Below are positions 25,056-35,761 of a stretch of 64,000 nt of DNA, piece by piece; within the stretch, counting starts at the first letter, position 1; each line of letters opens with the position of its first letter. The translations under genes were made by a program, and so were the position numbers. The notes under the pieces are model-generated. The model was not told the DNA's origin. It was given only the letters and a program-made list of their open reading frames with translations, and did no database searches. Origin of the DNA: Dehalococcoidia bacterium (GTDB lineage: Bacteria; Chloroflexota; Dehalococcoidia; Lucifugimonadales; UBA3495); NCBI GenBank assembly GCA_034428795.1, contig DAOUHF010000071.1, positions 19,256 to 83,255 of the forward strand, written 5' to 3'.

Positions 25056-26462
25056 ATGGGACTTGTGGTACAAAAATACGGCGGATCGTCAGTAGCCGAC
25101 GCCGAGAAAATCTTGAGCGTCGCCCGGCGGGTCATTGAGACCGGCAAAGGCGGCAAGAGCGGCAAAGGCGGCAAGGGCGGCATAGATGTTGTGGTGGTGG
25201 TCTCCGCGATGGGGGACACCACCGACGACCTGATAGAACTGGCTACTTCCGTTTCTCGTGACCCCAACCCCAGGGAGCTGGACCTCCTGCTTTCCACTGG
25301 GGAGTTAGTGTCGTGCACCCTCCTGACCATGGCGTTGCGGGACCTCGGCCAGGATGCCATCAGTCTGAGCGGGCCGCAAGCGGGGATTCTGACCGACACG
25401 AGCCACGGGCGGGCCCGGATTCACCGGGTCGACACCGGACGGGTGCGACATGAGTTGACGCAGGGACGGACCGTGGTGGTGGCCGGTTTTCAGGGCATCA
25501 CCGAGGGGGACGACATCACGACGCTGGGCCGGGGCGGCAGCGACACCACCGCCGTGGCATTGGCCGCCGCTCTGGGCGCGGACCGGTGCGAAATCTACAC
25601 TGACGTGGAGGGAATCTACACCGCCGACCCCCGGGTGGCCCCCCGGGCCCGGAAACTGGAAGAGATCGGGTACGAGGAGATGCTGGAACTGGCCAATCAC
25701 GGCGCCAAGATGCATCCCCGGTCCATCGAGTTGGGCGCGGCCTACAGGGTGCCCATTTTCGTGGCGTCGAGCTTCAACAACGCTCCGGGCACCCTGATCC
25801 ACGGCGGCTGCGACACGGCGGGCAAGCCGCCGGAGCGTACTTTACCGCCGCCTGGACCATCGACTTTACCATCGGCTGGACCATCGGCTGGCCTGGCGAA
25901 TAATTCGACCCAAAATACGTTCCGGAATACGCCGGGGAATACGCCGGGGAATACGCCGGGGAATGCGCCGGGGAATGCTATGGAAGATAGAGTTAAAGTA
26001 ACCGGTATAGCATTGAACGCCAATGTTGCCAAGATCACGGTGCGGCGGGTCCCCGACCGTCCGGGCATCGCGGCCGCCCTATTCGAACCCTTGGCCGAGG
26101 CATCCATCAGCGTGGATACCATCGTCCAGAACACCAGCGCCGACCTCACCACCGATATCAGCTTCACGGTAAGCCGCGACGACCTGGCCGTCGCCCTGAC
26201 CAGGGTGACGGCGCTCACGGAGGAACTGGGGGCGGGCGGTGTGGTCAGCGACGCCGGACTGGCGTCCGTGAGTATCGTGGGGTCCGGGATGCAAAACACG
26301 CCCGGATATGCCTCGCGTATGTTCCGCTCCCTGGCCAACGGGAACGTCAACATCGATATGATCACAACGTCGGAAATTCGTATCTCCTGTATCATCAAAG
26401 AGGAGGACTGCAGGGAGGCGGTGCGGTTGCTGCATCGAGACTTCGAACTGGACCAGGACTGA
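25056..26462 (+). CDS. lysC: Aspartate kinase with two low-complexity insertions
   Basis: [42 protein letters not shown]-terminal ACT domains. Insertions are [13 protein letters not shown] and ~70 aa of Pro/Gly/Asn/Thr-rich linker. Confidence 0.9.
25143..25181 (+). repeat. 18-bp in-frame tandem repeat ([12 protein letters not shown]) inside lysC
   Basis: ggcaaaggcggcaagRgc x2 plus ggc, read directly. Confidence 0.9.
25865..25987 (+). repeat. Two in-frame 12-bp tandem arrays inside lysC (accatcgRctKK x3 at 25865-25900; ggaatRcgccgg x4.6 at 25933-25987)
   Basis: Read directly. They encode [12 protein letters not shown] and [18 protein letters not shown]. Confidence 0.9.
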
Positions 26463-28650: not shown

Positions 28651-29016
28651 TTGAATGTACTAGGTTGTCATCTTCTGCTGGAACTCAGGGACTGTAACCC
28701 CACCCTCCTTAACGACCTAGACTACATACGTCGGGTGATGCTGGCGACCGCCCATGACGTAGGCGCCACAGTCGTCGGTGAGTCTTTTCACCGCTTTACT
28801 CCACAGGGTGTTACCGGAATTCTGGCCATCGCGGAATCACACATCTCCATACATACCTGGCCGGAGTACAGGTACGCCGCCGCAGACATATTCTCGTGCG
28901 GGTCATCGTTCCTGCCCCGTGAGGCCGCCGCCCGGCTGATTGAGCAGTTCGAGTCCCTTGACCCGGACATCAGGGAGATCCAGAGAGGCTTGGTGGCCGA
29001 CGCCGTGGCCGGCTGA
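28651..29016 (+). CDS. speH: S-adenosylmethionine decarboxylase proenzyme (small bacterial/archaeal type)
   Basis: LGCHLLLEL, AIAESHISIHTWPE (self-cleavage site), FSCG. TTG start after AAGAGGAGGA. Confidence 0.85.
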   Translation: MNVLGCHLLLELRDCNPTLLNDLDYIRRVMLATAHDVGATVVGESFHRFTPQGVTGILAIAESHISIHTWPEYRYAAADIFSCGSSFLPREAAARLIEQFESLDPDIREIQRGLVADAVAG

Positions 29017-29040: not shown

Positions 29041-29952
29041 ATGGAATTATCCGGCAATTGGTTTATGGAGAGCGTATCACCGGACCTGGCAGTAATGCTG
29101 CGGGTCCGGGAGATTCTCTATTCCGGGGAAACACCCTACCAAAAGGTCGAAATCATCGATTCCGATGTTTTCGGACGCACCCTCGTTCTCGACGGAAAGA
29201 CCCAGTCCACCGAACGGGACGAGTTCGTGTACCATGAGACCTTGGTACATCCGGCGATGCTCTGTCATCCGGACCCGCGGCGGGTGTTCATCGGCGGGGG
29301 CGGCGAGGGCGCCACCCTCCGGGAGGTCTTGGCCCACCGAACGGTCCAGGAAGCAACTATGCTGGACTTGGACCAGGAGGTGGTGGATCTGTGCCGCCGC
29401 TATTTACCCAACCATCACCAAGGCAGCTTCGACGACCCCAGGACCAGTCTGTTCCATCAAGACGCCAGGGGCTTTCTGGCGGAGGATGGAGAGGGGTACG
29501 ACGTCATCATCCTCGATCTGGTTGATCCCCTTGAGGGCGGCACCGCCTTCCTGCTATACACCGAAGAGTTCTACCGGATCGCGAGGGCGCGACTCAACAG
29601 CGGCGGTGTTTTGGTAACCCAATCGGGACCGGCCGGACTGCCCAACCACCAGGAATGCTTTACCACCATCTACAACACCCTGCGGCGCGTTTTTGTCCAC
29701 GCCGCCGGGGCCCAGGTGCACGTTCCGGCCTTTCAGACCCTTTGGGGTTTCACCCTGGCCTCCGACTCGCCACTTCTTCCGGCGGGGGGGCAGCCGGTAG
29801 ATGAATTGCTGGCCGACAGGGTAAGCAAAGGGCTGAAGCACTACGACGGCGAGACCCATCGCGGCATGTTCGCCCTCCCCAAGTACCTCCGCAACGGACT
29901 GGAAAACGAGACCCGCGTCAACCGGGATGCCGCCCCGGTGTTCATGGTCTAG
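29041..29952 (+). CDS. speE: Spermidine synthase (polyamine aminopropyltransferase)
   Basis: YQKVEIIDSDVFGRTLVLDG, GGGEGATLREVL, DVIILDLVDP. Confidence 0.9.
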   Translation: MELSGNWFMESVSPDLAVMLRVREILYSGETPYQKVEIIDSDVFGRTLVLDGKTQSTERDEFVYHETLVHPAMLCHPDPRRVFIGGGGEGATLREVLAHRTVQEATMLDLDQEVVDLCRRYLPNHHQGSFDDPRTSLFHQDARGFLAEDGEGYDVIILDLVDPLEGGTAFLLYTEEFYRIARARLNSGGVLVTQSGPAGLPNHQECFTTIYNTLRRVFVHAAGAQVHVPAFQTLWGFTLASDSPLLPAGGQPVDELLADRVSKGLKHYDGETHRGMFALPKYLRNGLENETRVNRDAAPVFMV

Positions 29953-30204: not shown

Positions 30205-32229
30205 CTACGGCTGGATCAGCACGCGCATCGAGCCGTCGGTGTCTTTGCGTTGGGTCAAGAGTTTGTGGCCTGCTTGTTCCGACCACAGGATGACGTCGTA
30301 GATGTTCAGGGCGTCGGCGAGGATGGCCTCGACGAAGGACTGGCGGTCGAGGTCCATCTGGTAGGTGATGGCTGCGATCACCCCGGCGCAACTCTTGCCG
30401 CGGCCATCGATGACCACCCAGCCGCTGTTGCCGTCGCTGATTATGGGGGCCATATCGCCGTGGACGCTGATTTCGCCGCTTTTCCGCATGTCCAACTGGC
30501 GTTTGAACTCCGCCACCGCTTCCCAAGCCACGGCCCGGCCGCGGTCGCCGTTGGAGCAGACGGCGCCGCGCACCCCGACGATGTCGGGATTGATGCGGGC
30601 CAGTTCGTCCAAGTCGTTGATTTTGAGGTGACCGGAAAGCGCGGTGCTCATGCCCATCTGCTTGCCCCGGAGCACTATGTCGCGTAAGACAGGCTCCGGC
30701 ATGAAGTCAAAAAGGTTCCGGCCGTCCTTGGTCAGGGTGTCGATCAGGAACCCGTCACACTCGCCGTCCTTGGCCAGTTGCACCATGCAAAGCGGATCCA
30801 GGCCGTCCTCGTAGAGCTCGTTGTCGGCGAACACCGAGCCGATGAGCTTGGTATTGAACCCCTCCAGCGCCCGCCTGGCCTGCCGCAGCACATCGACGGC
30901 GGTATCGTAGTCGCCGCGCTGGAACCCTACTTTCACCGACGTGGCGTCCAGGTGGGCAGCCGCATAGACGGCCATCGCCACTGTGCCGGGCTGGTTGGGC
31001 ACCACGCCCAAGGTGACGCTGACATGCTTCTCCACCGGGATTATGCCCCGCACCTGGCGCACGATTGAAGGATGTCCCGACCCGACCAGGGCCTCCTGCA
31101 GATTCTTGACGTCGACGACGTCGGCCCCGCCCTGCTCCGCTTCCAGGGCTTCGTCAACGTCCTGGACGCTCACCATCAGCAGCATCCCGGCAGCGAAATT
31201 GTTGTTGCCGTCCAGCCAGGCGGCCCTAGGTTGTGCCGCCGCAGCCACGGGCATCCGGGGTTTCAGGGGCTCAAGCTCGTCCCGCATTTGCTCTTTCTCC
31301 TGTGGGGTAAGGTCGATCAGGGGCAGGCGGGGAGGCCCGGCGGCCAGTCCCATCAACTCCGCCCAATGTTTCACCATGGAAACGGGCAGTGCGCCGTTGT
31401 ACTTGTCGAGCGTCCGGGTCCACCAGGTGTCAGAAAGCTCGTTCAACCGGCGTATGTGCCGGTCGTAGAAGGCCTCGTCCAAGTCGCCCTTGGTGGCCCG
31501 GTCGATAAACTGGACGTAGTAATTGGCCCCCGGAACGTCGAACCGCCAGTCTGAGGTGTTGGAGAACATCACCTGTTGCTGGAAGCCCAATTCCTGCGCT
31601 TTGAAGAAGATCCACTCGTCGGGAGTGCTTATGATTGCTTCCTTGCCCAGGGTCAGGTGGGCCTCGATGGAGATTTGCTGATTAAAGCTGGCCTCTTTGA
31701 TGCCGACGACGTTGGGGATGCGGCAGAGCCGCTCCAGGCCGTTGGTGCTCATCACGATCCCGAACTGGGGCGAGTTGTAGAACATGATGGCCAGGTTGGT
31801 ATTCTCGGCCAGAAGCCGAACGTACTCAACAACCTGGTCCTCGGTCTTCGTCACCATGAAGGGCGGAGCCACGACCAGCAGGTCGAACCCCTGGTCCTCG
31901 GCGTGCCGGGCAAGAGACAGCATCTCGGGGGCCGAAGAATCGGTAACGTGGGCAGCAATGAGCCAGTCACCAGCGGACTCCTCGGCCACCGTGTCCATGA
32001 CGTCGATGCGTTCGTCGTGGGTCAGGCTCCAGAACTCCCCCATACCCCAGGTGCAGCCGGCCCCGGTGGTGCCGAGGCTTCTGATGTGTCGGATGTTGCG
32101 CTTCATCCCTTCCCGGTCGAAGCGGTCATCCGGGGTGAAGGGGGTCACCAGAGTCGTCCATTGGCCCTTAAGGGCCTCCCACGCCCACGCCTGGGCCTCG
32201 TGTTTCGAGTAAGTAGCCATGACATGCAC
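30205..32229 (-). CDS. Three-domain fusion: DapA/NAL-family class I aldolase + MfnB-like (DUF556, 4-HFC-P synthase family) + TusA-like sulfur-carrier domain
   Basis: N-terminal ~330 aa has VTPFTPDD...VVGIKEAS (Schiff-base Lys context). Middle has LLMVSVQDVDEALEAEQGGADVVDVKN, KVGF, IDTLTKDGRNLFDF, ALSGH, DIVGVRGAVCSNGDR. C-terminal ~75 aa has IDGRGKSCAGVI...AGHKLL...MRVLIQP. AAGGAG RBS. Confidence 0.8.
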   Translation of the reverse strand: MHVMATYSKHEAQAWAWEALKGQWTTLVTPFTPDDRFDREGMKRNIRHIRSLGTTGAGCTWGMGEFWSLTHDERIDVMDTVAEESAGDWLIAAHVTDSSAPEMLSLARHAEDQGFDLLVVAPPFMVTKTEDQVVEYVRLLAENTNLAIMFYNSPQFGIVMSTNGLERLCRIPNVVGIKEASFNQQISIEAHLTLGKEAIISTPDEWIFFKAQELGFQQQVMFSNTSDWRFDVPGANYYVQFIDRATKGDLDEAFYDRHIRRLNELSDTWWTRTLDKYNGALPVSMVKHWAELMGLAAGPPRLPLIDLTPQEKEQMRDELEPLKPRMPVAAAAQPRAAWLDGNNNFAAGMLLMVSVQDVDEALEAEQGGADVVDVKNLQEALVGSGHPSIVRQVRGIIPVEKHVSVTLGVVPNQPGTVAMAVYAAAHLDATSVKVGFQRGDYDTAVDVLRQARRALEGFNTKLIGSVFADNELYEDGLDPLCMVQLAKDGECDGFLIDTLTKDGRNLFDFMPEPVLRDIVLRGKQMGMSTALSGHLKINDLDELARINPDIVGVRGAVCSNGDRGRAVAWEAVAEFKRQLDMRKSGEISVHGDMAPIISDGNSGWVVIDGRGKSCAGVIAAITYQMDLDRQSFVEAILADALNIYDVILWSEQAGHKLLTQRKDTDGSMRVLIQP

Positions 32230-32442: not shown

Positions 32443-32853
32443 TCAGTAACCGTCATTCGAGCCTAATTGATCGTTCGAATCCTGGGGAATCAATCGGGCG
32501 ACCGCCTCAATGGTTCGTCTGGCGATCGGGACAGCTGCCTCAAGGTCTGCCAGTTCCACGTCGACATCATAAAATCCTTTATGCAAGATTTCCGCTGTGG
32601 AAAACCCCGCCAGGAGGTAAGGGTCGTCCGTCTCGCTAGATACTTGGATCGCGAAATTCTTCAGCCTCCGGTGCCGGGCGACGTCTATGCCGCGCACCGC
32701 TGCCAGCGCATGAAACACTTGGGTCACGCTTCCCCAGAACATTTCCCCGGCCTTGGAAACTTCTTCGTTCCTCAGCGCCTCCAGGCCGTTCTCAAAGTAT
32801 TGCTCGGAATGCTCCATGTGCCTTCGGACTTTAGTTGCCAATTCGGACGTCAT
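32443..32853 (-). CDS. PaREP1-like (HEPN-superfamily) protein
   Basis: 136 aa. EVSKAGEMFWGSVTQVFHALAAVRG and AEILHKGFYDVD match my recollection of PaREP1 features (AAxKxW...; LHxxFY). Lower GC by eye. Confidence 0.6.
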   Translation of the reverse strand: MTSELATKVRRHMEHSEQYFENGLEALRNEEVSKAGEMFWGSVTQVFHALAAVRGIDVARHRRLKNFAIQVSSETDDPYLLAGFSTAEILHKGFYDVDVELADLEAAVPIARRTIEAVARLIPQDSNDQLGSNDGY

Positions 32854-33109: not shown

Positions 33110-35062
33110 CTACTCCTCGTCGCCGTACTGGCTCTTGAGGGAGTCCACCACGGCGGGGTCGGCCAGGGTGGTGGTGTCGCCCAAGGCGCGGCCCTCGGCT
33201 ACGTCCCGCAGCAGGCGGCGCATTATCTTGCCGCTGCGGGTCTTGGGGAGCTCGGCGGCGAAGTAGATGTCGTCGGGGCGGGCCATCGCCCCGATCTTCC
33301 CGGCCACGTGGGCCTTGAGTTCGGCGATCACGTCGTCGGACATGGCCACTTCGTCCTTCAGGGTTACGAAGGCCACGATAGCCTGGCCCTTCACCTCGTG
33401 TTCTTTGCCGATGCAAGCGGCCTCGGCGACCTTCAAGTTGTCCACCAGCGCGCTTTCGACCTCCATGGTGCCGATGCGGTGTCCCGAGACGTTGATCACG
33501 TCGTCCACGCGGCCCAGGAGCCAGAAATAGCCGTCCTCATCCAGCTTGGCTCCATCGGCGGTGAAATAGATGCCGGGGAACCGCGACCAGTAGGTGTCCT
33601 TGAACCGTTGCGGGTCGCCGTAGATGTTGCGCAGCATCGAGGGCCAGGGCCGTTTGATGGTCAGGTAACCGCCACCACCGGGACCAACCGCGTTCCCGGC
33701 CTCGTCCAGAATCTCGGCTTCGATTCCGGGGAACGGTTGGGTTGCCGAGCCCGGTTTCAGCGTGGTCAGGCCCGGCAACGGGGCGATCATGATGCTGCCG
33801 GTCTCTGTCTGCCACCAGGTATCCACCACCGGGCAGTTGCCCAAGCCGATGTTCTGCCAGTACCAGACCCAGGCTTCCGGGTTGATCGGCTCGCCCACGC
33901 TGCCCAGCAGCCGCAGGGTGGACAGATCGTGGCGTTGGGGATACGAGACGCCCCAGCGCATGAAGGTGCGGATGGCCGTCGGCGCGGTATACAGGATCGA
34001 GACGCCGTACTTGGCCACGATGGCCCAGAAACGGTCCCGGTCCGGGTAATCGGGGGAACCTTCGTACATAACCGTGGTGGCCCCGTTGGCCAAAGGCCCG
34101 TAGACAATGTAGCTGTGGCCGGTGACCCAGCCGATGTCGGCGGTGCACCAATAGGTGTCGTCTTCCTTCAAGTCGAAGACCCACTTGGTCGTGGCGTAGG
34201 TGCCCAGGAGGTATCCCCCGGTGGTGTGGACAATGCCCTTGGGCTTGCCGGTAGTGCCGCTGGTGTACAGCAGGTATAGCATGTCCTCGCTGTCCATCGG
34301 TTCCGGGTCGCAGGTCTGGGGTTGGCCCTCGACCAGGTCGTGCCACCAGATGTCCCGGCCGTCCACCATCTTGTCGTCGGCGCTGCCGGTCCGGCGCAGC
34401 ACCACCACCCGTTCGATGCTGGGCGAACCGTCCAAGGAATCGTCGGCGTTCTGCTTCAAGGGGACAATTCCGCCGCGGCGGTAGCCACCGTCGGCGGTGA
34501 TCAACACCTTGGACTCGGAGTCGTTGATGCGGTCGCGCAACGACTCGGCGCTGAATCCGCCGAACACGACGCTGTGGGGTGCGCCAATGCGGGCGCAGGC
34601 CAACATTGCGATGGGTAGTTCCGGGGTCATGGGCAGATATATGGTCACCCGGTCGCCCTTCCTCACACCGAGGCTCTTCAGGCCATTGGCGAAGCGGCAG
34701 ACCTCGCGGTAGAGGTCCCAGTAGGTATAGACTTTCCAATCGCCCGGCTCGCCCTCCCAAATGATGGCGGCCTTGTTGCGCCGGCCGGCCGTCAGGTGAC
34801 GGTCGATGCAGTTATAGGAGACGTTGAGCTTTCCGCCGACGAACCACTTGGCGAAGGGAGGATCCCACTCCAGCACTCGTTCCCACTTCTGGAACCAGTC
34901 CAACTCCTCGGCAAGACCGGCCCAGAAGGCCTCGGGGTCCTGCCGGGCCTTCTCGTAGATGTCCGGGTCCGCCATGTTGGCTTTCCCGACAAAATCCCCA
35001 GGAGGAGGGAAGGTGCGCTCCTCCTGGAGCAAGGCTTCAATGTTTCCTGAGTTCTCTACCAT
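33110..35062 (-). CDS. acs: Acetyl-CoA synthetase
   Basis: 650 aa, [19 protein letters not shown], canonical Acs N- and C-termini. Confidence 0.95.
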
Positions 35063-35095: not shown

Positions 35096-35761
35096 TCAGC
35101 TTTGAACGACTGATAAAAGTTCCTGCTCGTAGAACTCGGCGCCCCTATCATACGTTTCAGGAAACCGGTCTAACATTTCAACGAATTGTCTCATTATCGG
35201 ACTGATCCAACCGATAGTTTCCAGAATTTGTCCGTGGAGCTCTGTCAAGTCGCCACGGCTCCACACCGGCTCGTGATGAAATACCCGGTTTCGCAACAAG
35301 CGTATATGATAAAGGCGCTTAGATAGGCGGCCCCGAGTCCGGTGTTGATTTGGGACGCCGGGAAAAACCGGTTTGAGTAGCTTTCGCCATAGTTGCTCCT
35401 CGTATTGGCTATCAAACAGACCTGCCCAGAATCCGAAATTCAGTTGGGCTACCATGTCTCCTGAGGTGAACGAAGCCCCTAGTTTCTTCCGCGCCTTCTG
35501 CAGAGCGTCCTTCGATTTCTTCGTCCTAAGTCTGTCGAACCAGTACTCGTCGCCGAATTCGTCACTAGCGGCGTAGTGAATATGGTTGCGCAGCGTGATT
35601 TCCAAGCCGTTTAATACAGGATACAGGCTTTCGCATAATGCCACATTCCAAGCGTAGGCGCTTAACGATAGCAAATCGTTCGCTGTGGCCTGCTGTCGAT
35701 AAGGTCCAATCCGAGACTCGGAAATCGTGTGACAGATTTGATGAACGTATTCTGATGGCAT
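35096..35761 (-). CDS. Abi-like protein (Abi_2 / AbiD-AbiF family, HEPN-type RNRxxHHE motif)
   Basis: 221 aa. YAWNVALCESLYPVLNGLEITLRNHI, FGFWAGLF, LLRNRVFHHEPVW. About 52% GC in a 60-bp sample I counted. Confidence 0.7.
   Translation of the reverse strand: MPSEYVHQICHTISESRIGPYRQQATANDLLSLSAYAWNVALCESLYPVLNGLEITLRNHIHYAASDEFGDEYWFDRLRTKKSKDALQKARKKLGASFTSGDMVAQLNFGFWAGLFDSQYEEQLWRKLLKPVFPGVPNQHRTRGRLSKRLYHIRLLRNRVFHHEPVWSRGDLTELHGQILETIGWISPIMRQFVEMLDRFPETYDRGAEFYEQELLSVVQS

Follow-up and report, generated by a model that had tools for sequence, protein, structure and literature searches.

A fused aldolase, MfnB-like and TusA-fold protein of Dehalococcoidia belongs to a three-part gene module with possible ties to the synthesis of quinone-like lipids

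The stretch of DNA analysed here, referred to as the window, comprises 64,000 nucleotides of contig DAOUHF010000071.1 (assembly GCA_034428795.1) from a Dehalococcoidia bacterium. The gene under study occupies 30205..32229 on the minus strand, with its stop codon at 30205-30207, and is an uninterrupted open reading frame (ORF) of 674 amino acids (aa) when counted, as residues are here, from the GTG at 32229. Public gene calls for the identical or near-identical protein all start at the ATG at 32218-32220, three codons further in, and this is the probable true start, which gives a protein of 671 aa. An earlier sequence-only reading had described the product as a fusion of DapA-type, MfnB-type and TusA-type parts. 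This architecture is borne out by Pfam, by the best family match of diverse C-termini and by a structural model searched with Foldseek, and the motifs quoted in that reading are all found at their places. All parts lie on the minus strand. Pfam and alignments place the first domain, a class I aldolase barrel of the DHDPS/N-acetylneuraminate-lyase (NAL) superfamily and of a module-specific 'TWGMGEFW' subfamily, at aa 20-320 (31270..32172). It is followed by a Pro/Ala-rich linker that differs in length and sequence among species (aa 321-348, 31186..31269). The second domain, an MfnB-like barrel of a module-specific clade in the 4-HFC-P synthase family, PF04476 (4-HFC-P being the phosphate of 4-(hydroxymethyl)-2-furancarboxaldehyde), is defined by Pfam, solved structures and a tree (aa 349-580, 30490..31185). 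A variable Gly/Asn/Ser-rich linker (aa 581-603, 30421..30489) leads to the third domain, of TusA/SirA fold with the order beta-alpha-beta-alpha-beta-beta, which is defined by Pfam, model and Foldseek (aa 604-674, 30208..30420). The motifs GIKEAS (176-181), DVVDVKN (370-376), VKVGF (432-436), IDTLTKDG (496-503), GVRGAVC (552-558) and DGRGKSCAGV (608-617) are spread over the three domains.

The first domain matches the DHDPS family (PF00701) over profile positions 2-287 of 289, with an E-value of 1.9e-32 and 112.6 bits versus a cutoff of 22.1. When aligned with DHDPS structures, the predicted Schiff-base lysine K178 (31696-31698) and the tyrosine Y151 (31777-31779) coincide with the Lys and Tyr of the motifs G-x-K-E-A and Y-N-x-P, and both are invariant in 80 fused orthologues and in 41 split or standalone members of the gene module described below. 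The score on the DapA model TIGR00674 is 76.8 bits versus a cutoff of 206.15, and G62/M63, F124/M125 and F156 occupy the positions that hold Thr-Thr, Tyr-Tyr and Arg in the aligned DHDPS structures; the residues that we take to be DapA-specific (T44, Y107 and R138 in the numbering of E. coli DapA) align with G62, M125 and F156. The domain is roughly equidistant from all the named DHDPS/NAL subfamilies. Judged from its sequence, it is a NAL-superfamily aldolase and not DapA, and the label DapA-like given to it before is correct for the superfamily and incorrect for DapA proper.

With the rest of this superfamily (DapA, NanA, KD(P)G aldolase, KdgD) the domain shares the TIM barrel, the Schiff-base Lys, the catalytic Tyr and the xxGE element, but it differs in the replaced Thr-Thr, Tyr-Tyr and Arg of DapA and in a signature of its own, W-(G/N)-M-G-E-F-W, which together with K178, Y151, F156, D227, W228 and R229 is invariant in the 41 split or standalone members. 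The module-linked aldolases form two clades with common invariant residues that the unlinked paralogues lack, and the latter mostly carry Phe or Leu where the catalytic Tyr is expected. In the GxxGE motif (W61-G62-M63-G64-E65 here) the Gly-Glu pair is kept, the first Gly has become Trp, and Thr-Thr has become Gly/Asn-Met; the backbone amides could bind a carboxylate despite this alteration. The nearest standalone aldolases, P0134 and P0271 (with 'TWPGGEFW'), were considered as members of the module and rejected, being unlinked paralogues in a catabolic-looking cluster. P0271 (L116, 8001-9017) and its relatives P0134, P0272 and P0273 are surrounded by genes for a cyclase, a cupin, a BKACE protein, a CoA-transferase and malate synthase, with no linkage to MfnB.

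The second domain is matched by PF04476 (4HFCP_synth) at aa 351-575 with an E-value of 2.6e-54 and 184.8 bits versus a cutoff of 22.4, and it finds the structures of Methanocaldococcus jannaschii MJ1099 (4rc1/4u9p) with an E-value of 4e-42 and 38% identity over the whole domain. Residues D373, K375 (31105-31107), K433 (30931-30933), D497 (30739-30741), K501, R554 and R563 correspond to D25, K27, K85, D151, K155, R208 and R217 of MJ1099, so that every catalytic residue is kept. K155 and R217 of MJ1099 are described as substrate-binding residues (PMC11365854). The scores on the NCBI equivalog models for MfnB, NF002573 and NF002575, are below both cutoffs (189 bits versus 341, and 175.5 versus 304), and the MfnB-like proteins of the split forms are likewise below them (184-228 bits). 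When 69 sequences were placed in a neighbour-joining tree (37-45% identity, no bootstrap values), all module-linked sequences formed one long-stemmed clade, while MJ1099 falls among other standalone proteins. This clade carries the invariant substitutions P29L, Y83S, Y122F and A186S (MJ1099 numbering) at sites that are conserved elsewhere. The assignment to the MfnB family made in the sequence-only reading is therefore sustained, but the phylogenetic placement separates the domain from true MfnB. The domain resembles MJ1099 in fold family and in its retained catalytic residues, and differs in its clade, in its constant fusion with, or adjacency to, a domain like TusA, in its linkage to an aldolase and in the absence of other mfn genes nearby.

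The third domain is more divergent. Its PF01206 (TusA) match, at aa 607-673, is weak: within the whole protein it has an E-value of 0.021 and 15.1 bits, and the domain taken alone reaches 20.2 bits, versus a gathering threshold of 28.6. For 17 diverse C-terminal sequences, TusA was in every case the top Pfam family and was matched over its full model length, with a best E-value of 6e-7. Short relatives found by profile search have precomputed PF01206 matches and are named 'TusA-related sulfurtransferase' by JGI and 'sulfurtransferase TusA family protein' by NCBI, and the free-standing TusA genes of the module are recorded as PF01206 matches as well. A sequence profile of the C-terminal domain gave no significant match to the sequences of the PDB, the best TusA-like one being 1pav with an E-value of 1. 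The AlphaFold model of the C-terminus reached a pLDDT of 47 from the single sequence and of 87.7 with an alignment of 52 rows. Its top Foldseek matches (8j4c, 8k1r, 3lvj_C, 3hz7, 3lvk_B and 1dcj; TM-score 0.67-0.71, probability 1.0) comprise YeeD/TsuB, E. coli TusA in complex with IscS, YhhP and a SirA-like protein, at a root mean square deviation of about 2 Å over 69 columns. By this model, the third domain has the fold of TusA.

Cys614 (30388-30390) occupies the helix 1 N-cap, within the context hydrophobic-Asp-x-x-Gly-x-x-Cys (here I-D-G-R-G-K-S-C-A-G-V), at a position that we take to be that of TusA Cys19. The canonical Cys-Pro-x-Pro (CPxP) has become Cys-x-Gly-Val/Ile, namely C-A-G-V in the window protein and C-K-G-V, C-T-G-I or C-I-G-V in relatives, and the cysteine itself is invariant or nearly so across the fused and free-standing forms. 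The two-layer alpha/beta fold, the placement of the Cys at a helix N-cap and the Asp...Gly...Cys spacing are those of the TusA/SirA/YeeD (TsuB) family (PF01206; 3lvj, 1dcj, 8j4c, 3hz7); the domain departs from this family in lacking CPxP, in scoring under the Pfam threshold, in being fused to a biosynthetic barrel and in having no sulfur-relay partner in sight nearby. A TusA-like C-terminal fragment of 108 aa (P0422) bears the JGI label 'formylmethanofuran dehydrogenase subunit C', which is probably spurious and perhaps stems from the Gly/Asn-rich linker.

Relatives of the fusion are encoded in at least 428 species-level genomes in a scan with one genome per species, and the labels among the listed genomes are nearly all Dehalococcoidia, SAR202 cluster or Chloroflexota; in the dark ocean, SAR202 rank among the most abundant bacteria. 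More than 120 clusters of 74-100% identity came from a protein search; they measure 671-740 aa, share both strong domains and lie on contigs of up to 4.9 Mb. In an exhaustive search only one full-length fused cluster was present among the 50%-identity representatives, which indicates that the fusion is a single tight clade. The ORF was intact in all 80 species loci retrieved (670-737 aa). Across these 80 species the motifs KEASF, DVKN, VKVGF, IDTLTKDG and DGRGKSCAG are invariant, and the three domains are under strong purifying selection, with both linkers less conserved. The catalytic lysines of both barrels (K178, K375/K433), for which the sequence-only reading had asked for a check of conservation, are conserved, as is the TusA-type cysteine (C614). 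Given that the protein is kept at 70-100% identity in all these species, it must do something important. One locus, L052 (JADFOJ010000064.1), is binned as 'Planctomycetota bacterium'; its fusion is 76% identical to that of the window and has a typical SAR202-type C-terminus, and it is probably a mis-binned Dehalococcoidia contig.

A chimeric ORF produced by misassembly or frameshift would be compatible with the existence of two-gene and three-gene split forms in other lineages. This explanation is effectively refuted by the uninterrupted ORF in 80 of 80 loci, by the clusters of the protein search, which come from independent projects, and by the base composition of the window, which is even along its length and so gives no sign of a foreign insert or a chimeric join. 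The fusion is genuine, as had been supposed. Databases label it by its domains only, as IMG already does, and its usual annotation is 'dihydrodipicolinate synthase family' or 'hypothetical'. In the literature, no description of this architecture or of the module was found, nor anything relevant on MfnB together with DHDPS, SAR202 or menaquinone; a match for 'DUF556' was discarded because it referred to DUF5565. The proposal that the architecture is undescribed therefore stands with respect to publications, although it is not rare, being present in hundreds of Dehalococcoidia species and labelled by domains in IMG.

Split forms were found by a metagenome scan with the two-domain relative P0124 and by look-ups of genomic context, and four layouts can be told apart. 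The first is the triple fusion (the window, L001-L080, L104 and L106-L108). The second has an aldolase gene followed by a gene for a two-domain MfnB-TusA protein, with a stop between them and often a different frame; it occurs on many independent contigs with a GC content of 0.29-0.65, labelled Chloroflexi (L119) or Dehalococcoidia (the P0124 cluster). The third, in one lineage, has the MfnB-TusA gene with no aldolase inside 8 kb. In the fourth the three parts are separate genes, either in an operon mfnB-tusA-aldolase (L117/118, L121, L123, L125) or with mfnB-tusA convergent with the aldolase gene (L111-L114, L120, L126). Wherever both are found in the module, MfnB and TusA are fused or adjacent. 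In the lineage group G4 (L096, L098-L101), which has no DHDPS gene nearby, an HpcH/HpaI pyruvate aldolase divergent from MfnB-TusA was considered as a non-homologous replacement and rejected, since it is a decaying pseudogene whose frameshifts differ from locus to locus and which is mostly deleted in L101 (L096 6607-7752; L098 6855-8000; L099 6852-8000; L100 3107-4260; L101 3313-3863). In several low- and mid-GC Dehalococcoidia lineages, two small ORFs (about 90-130 aa) come after the MfnB-TusA gene and share its strand (L083 9000-9597; L089 9071-9705; L094 2957-3641; L127 12072-12724); one of them gives a YtxH match in L127, and the others match no family.

From marker proteins only, part of the second, split clade is archaeal: Spt4, Rpo7, Alba and a ProRS of archaeal type are encoded at locus L126, and Nep1 at L122/L124. 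The archaeal hosts of the split module are soil (and peat) archaea. That the three parts are fused in one lineage and adjacent, with rearrangement, in distant ones is strong evidence that they act in one process, and their recurrence as linked genes in archaea indicates an old, mobile functional unit and not a quirk of one lineage. These comparisons place the tri-domain protein, with its intact catalytic residues in all three parts, in a module kept in both bacteria and archaea, in which module-specific subfamilies of the known MfnB, NAL-type aldolase and TusA families are joined in a widely conserved unit. The route had been supposed to be self-contained on one polypeptide. This is probably not so, given that the parts recur as separate linked genes and that genes for a prenyltransferase, a decarboxylase and a methyltransferase flank them in some lineages.

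The middle domain could be taken for an MfnB that makes 4-HFC-P for the C1 carrier of a canonical methanofuran or methylofuran pathway, with the other two domains accessory. The strong PF04476 match, the full set of catalytic residues and the identity to MJ1099 speak for this, as does the name '(5-formylfuran-3-yl)methyl phosphate synthase' given by PGAP to the two-domain MfnB-TusA form. In L126, moreover, a class I/II aminotransferase gene lies 1.4 kb from mfnB, the best model that it passes being a generic one for aminotransferases dependent on pyridoxal phosphate. Nonetheless, the scores below the MfnB equivalog cutoffs and the separate long-stemmed clade set the domain apart from MJ1099, and the constant aldolase and TusA-like partners have no role in the known pathway. 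No mfn or tetrahydromethanopterin (H4MPT) genes are found within about 7 kb of the fusion in the window, as had been noted before, and in about 45 annotated loci none of mfnA/C/D/E/F, fwd/fhc or the H4MPT genes came to light; the literature search likewise returned nothing linking SAR202 to methanofuran or H4MPT. A role in methanofuran synthesis is for these reasons very unlikely.

A different association is suggested by the genes that flank the module. Genes like UbiA/MqnP, UbiD/MqnL, UbiX and UbiE/MenG lie beside or near it in five lineages (L117/118/121; L122/124; L126; L105; G1/G2/L127). In L117/118 and L121 they form one tight operon, mfnB-tusA-aldolase-ubiD-ubiA, and the opposite strand carries a gene for a flavin prenyltransferase of the UbiX family. 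The best model for this UbiD is TIGR03701, 'menaquinone biosynthesis decarboxylase', at 439 bits versus a cutoff of 496; for the UbiA, the nearest models are UbiA-like and MqnP ones, and the UbiX is above its cutoff. That the operon UbiD and UbiA fall below the MqnL and MqnP equivalog cutoffs indicates that their substrate may differ from 1,4-dihydroxy-6-naphthoate. At L122/L124 the aldolase gene has, as an immediate neighbour in divergent orientation, a gene of the UbiA family, and no MfnB or TusA lies within 9 kb. A MenG/UbiE methyltransferase gene lies about 650 nucleotides from mfnB in the archaeal L126 (173 bits versus a cutoff of 158), and another adjoins the split module, divergently, in the bacterial L105 (202 bits versus 158). 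In low-GC Dehalococcoidia a UbiD gene is located 6-9 kb downstream of the split module, past pheA and trk, and is kept in several lineage groups (L083 15372-16172; L086 10990-12465; L127 19821-20999; also L085, L088, L089 and L102). The one scored, in L086, is above the MqnL equivalog cutoff (537 versus 496).

With a handful of such genes per genome, the chance of immediate adjacency was roughly estimated at about 1% per locus. Four adjacent cases in about 15 lineage groups are far above this expectation, the estimate being post hoc and the lineages not fully independent. In the futalosine menaquinone pathway, the UbiA, UbiD, UbiX and UbiE-type families are the ones predicted to carry out the late steps (PMC4746308). 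The likeness to that pathway lies in the same gene families (MqnP/UbiA, MqnL/UbiD, MqnM/UbiX, MenG/UbiE) flanking the module; its early steps, MqnA-E, are unrelated to the three module domains, and none of the genes mqnA-E turned up in the loci. Two other neighbours, both below their curated cutoffs, weakly suggest a 2-oxo acid or an acyl compound as the product: an AMP-forming acyl-CoA synthetase, like MbcS or benzoate-CoA ligase, directly after the aldolase gene in L125 (10114-11796, plus strand), and a thiamine diphosphate (ThDP) enzyme like benzoylformate decarboxylase two genes from the aldolase in L122 (10345-12129, plus strand) and also in L124.

The position of the aldolase in these neighbourhoods bears on the possibility that the first domain has a supply or catabolic role, in which a KD(P)G-aldolase-like cleavage of a 2-keto-3-deoxy sugar acid phosphate would provide pyruvate and, for the MfnB-like domain, glyceraldehyde 3-phosphate (GA3P). 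The DHDPS/NAL family does include KD(P)G aldolases, and there are weak matches to the archaeal KD(P)G aldolase model NF040954 (45.6 bits) and, for the C-terminal half of the domain searched against solved structures, to 2nuw (E-value 0.088, not significant). These scores are far below the cutoffs, however, and GA3P is a central metabolite for which a dedicated supply would be needless. The aldolase is, in addition, placed after MfnB-TusA in the split archaeal operons and keeps company with UbiA, not with MfnB, in L122/L124, and such a role is accordingly regarded as highly improbable.

The explanation that we favour, tentatively and with somewhat less than even confidence, is that the encoded protein is a trifunctional enzyme and represents, in fused form, a three-component biosynthetic module that would convert triose phosphates to a furan-aldehyde phosphate and this to a pyruvate adduct, possibly with sulfur, on the way to a prenylated quinone-like product. 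In the first step, the MfnB-like domain would use Lys375 and Lys433 as Schiff bases to join two triose phosphates into a C6 compound, 4-HFC-P or a close variant, as is suggested by the 38% identity to a characterised MfnB with every catalytic residue kept. In the second, the enamine formed by Lys178 with pyruvate, or with another 2-oxo acid, would attack the aldehyde of the C6 compound to give a C9 2-oxo acid or (hetero)aromatic acid. Family chemistry and gene order point to this step: the aromatic-aldehyde hydratase-aldolases of the same superfamily, such as NahE, are a chemical precedent for the reaction of pyruvate with a heteroaromatic aldehyde, and an aldolase that acts last within the module fits both the aldolase beside UbiA without MfnB or TusA (L122/L124) and the operon order mfnB-tusA-dhdps-ubiD-ubiA (L121). 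In the third and least certain step, Cys614 may give persulfide sulfur to an intermediate, or may tether a reactive intermediate and hand it over. In the fourth, suggested by the gene neighbourhoods in other lineages, the product would pass to a prenyltransferase of UbiA type, a decarboxylase (UbiD/UbiX) and a methyltransferase (UbiE/MenG), the module thereby supplying or tailoring the head group of an isoprenoid-quinone-like lipid.

If the third step is sulfur transfer, the protein could be a sulfur-heterocycle synthase, in which the persulfide sulfur of Cys614 would enter an MfnB-type 1,4-dicarbonyl intermediate or the aldol product to give a thiophene or another thio-compound. This would be a compatible sub-variant of the explanation above, drawn by analogy, and is in itself unlikely. 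Its appeal lies in the TusA fold with a Cys at a position like that of TusA Cys19, in the retained context of this (nearly) invariant residue in all forms of the module, and in the constant adjacency or fusion of MfnB and TusA. Thiazole synthesis by ThiS-ThiG offers a similar logic, in that a Schiff-base barrel and a sulfur carrier build a five-membered heterocycle phosphate, as does the synthesis of 3-amino-4-hydroxybenzoate by GriI-GriH, where a class I aldolase leads to an aromatic acid directly from precursors at the level of triose phosphates; these are analogies only, the families being unrelated to TusA and NAL, and no homology is claimed. Set against sulfur incorporation are the replacement of CPxP by C-x-G-V/I, the non-significant profile search against solved TusA sequences, and the fact that none of the loci examined showed an IscS/SufS, rhodanese or DsrE gene next to the module.

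The trifunctional, quinone-directed reading has itself to be weighed against several observations. The missing sulfur-donor neighbour and the lost CPxP motif leave sulfur transfer unproven, the loss of the usual Thr/Ser pair from the carboxylate-binding GxxGE motif means that pyruvate is not assured as the donor, and the clade-specific loss of two conserved tyrosines, together with the other substitutions, means that the product of the MfnB-like domain may not be 4-HFC-P. Attempts to derive a known quinone head group on paper from C6 and C3 units (aldol reaction with ring closure, bridged bicycles, Diels-Alder-type benzannulation) gave nothing compelling. For the UbiD gene at 6-9 kb in low-GC Dehalococcoidia, inherited synteny may account for the linkage. 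A quinone late-step neighbour is absent in about ten lineage groups, that of the window among them, no UbiA, UbiD, UbiX or UbiE homologues are found in the 64-kb window, and at most Dehalococcoidia loci the fusion is surrounded by housekeeping genes with no quinone gene near.

A more specific form of this reading is that the module is the early part of a new chorismate-independent pathway, which would build a (possibly sulfur-bearing) aromatic quinone head group from triose phosphates and pyruvate in SAR202/Dehalococcoidia and in soil/peat archaea, followed by UbiA/MqnP-like prenylation, UbiD/UbiX decarboxylation and UbiE/MenG methylation. We consider this form rather unlikely. Were it true, it would amount to a third way to make a quinone head group, or to a new quinone, with a bearing on respiration, on chemotaxonomic biomarkers and on the evolution of aerobic metabolism. 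According to a 2026 survey, many Chloroflexota are without any known quinone pathway (PMC13386864), and a quinone-linked function of the module would help to explain this seeming lack. Even with another product, the protein would be the first MfnB-family enzyme outside methanofuran synthesis, and it would represent a new use of a TusA-type domain, in an aldolase-based pathway.

The genes around the fusion in the window are those expected from the sequence-only reading, which had listed speH/speE and HEPN-like neighbours. The genes speH (28651-29016) and speE (29041-29952) lie on one side of it; upstream are a PaREP1-family gene (32443-32853, minus strand), the acetyl-CoA synthetase gene acs (33110-35062) and an Abi_2-family gene (35096-35761, minus strand), with acs between the other two. 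The PaREP1 and Abi_2 families are presumably both HEPN-type. Homologues of these two genes occur in just 22-29 of the 80 related loci, which makes them look like mobile insertions within a conserved synteny. Among the window and its close relatives, one flank consists of thrB, lysC, a GT2 gene, a TPR protein gene, speH and speE, and the other of PaREP1, acs, Abi_2, an MFS transporter gene and rplS. These are housekeeping genes, and so are those of an alternative conserved synteny in relatives, with recG, fakA, pheA and trk. In the conserved-neighbour analysis, no gene besides the module was common to all eight Dehalococcoidia-type lineage groups. The aspartate kinase ORF of the window (25056-26462, plus strand) contains a low-complexity insert rich in Pro, Gly, Asn and Thr between its kinase and ACT regions.

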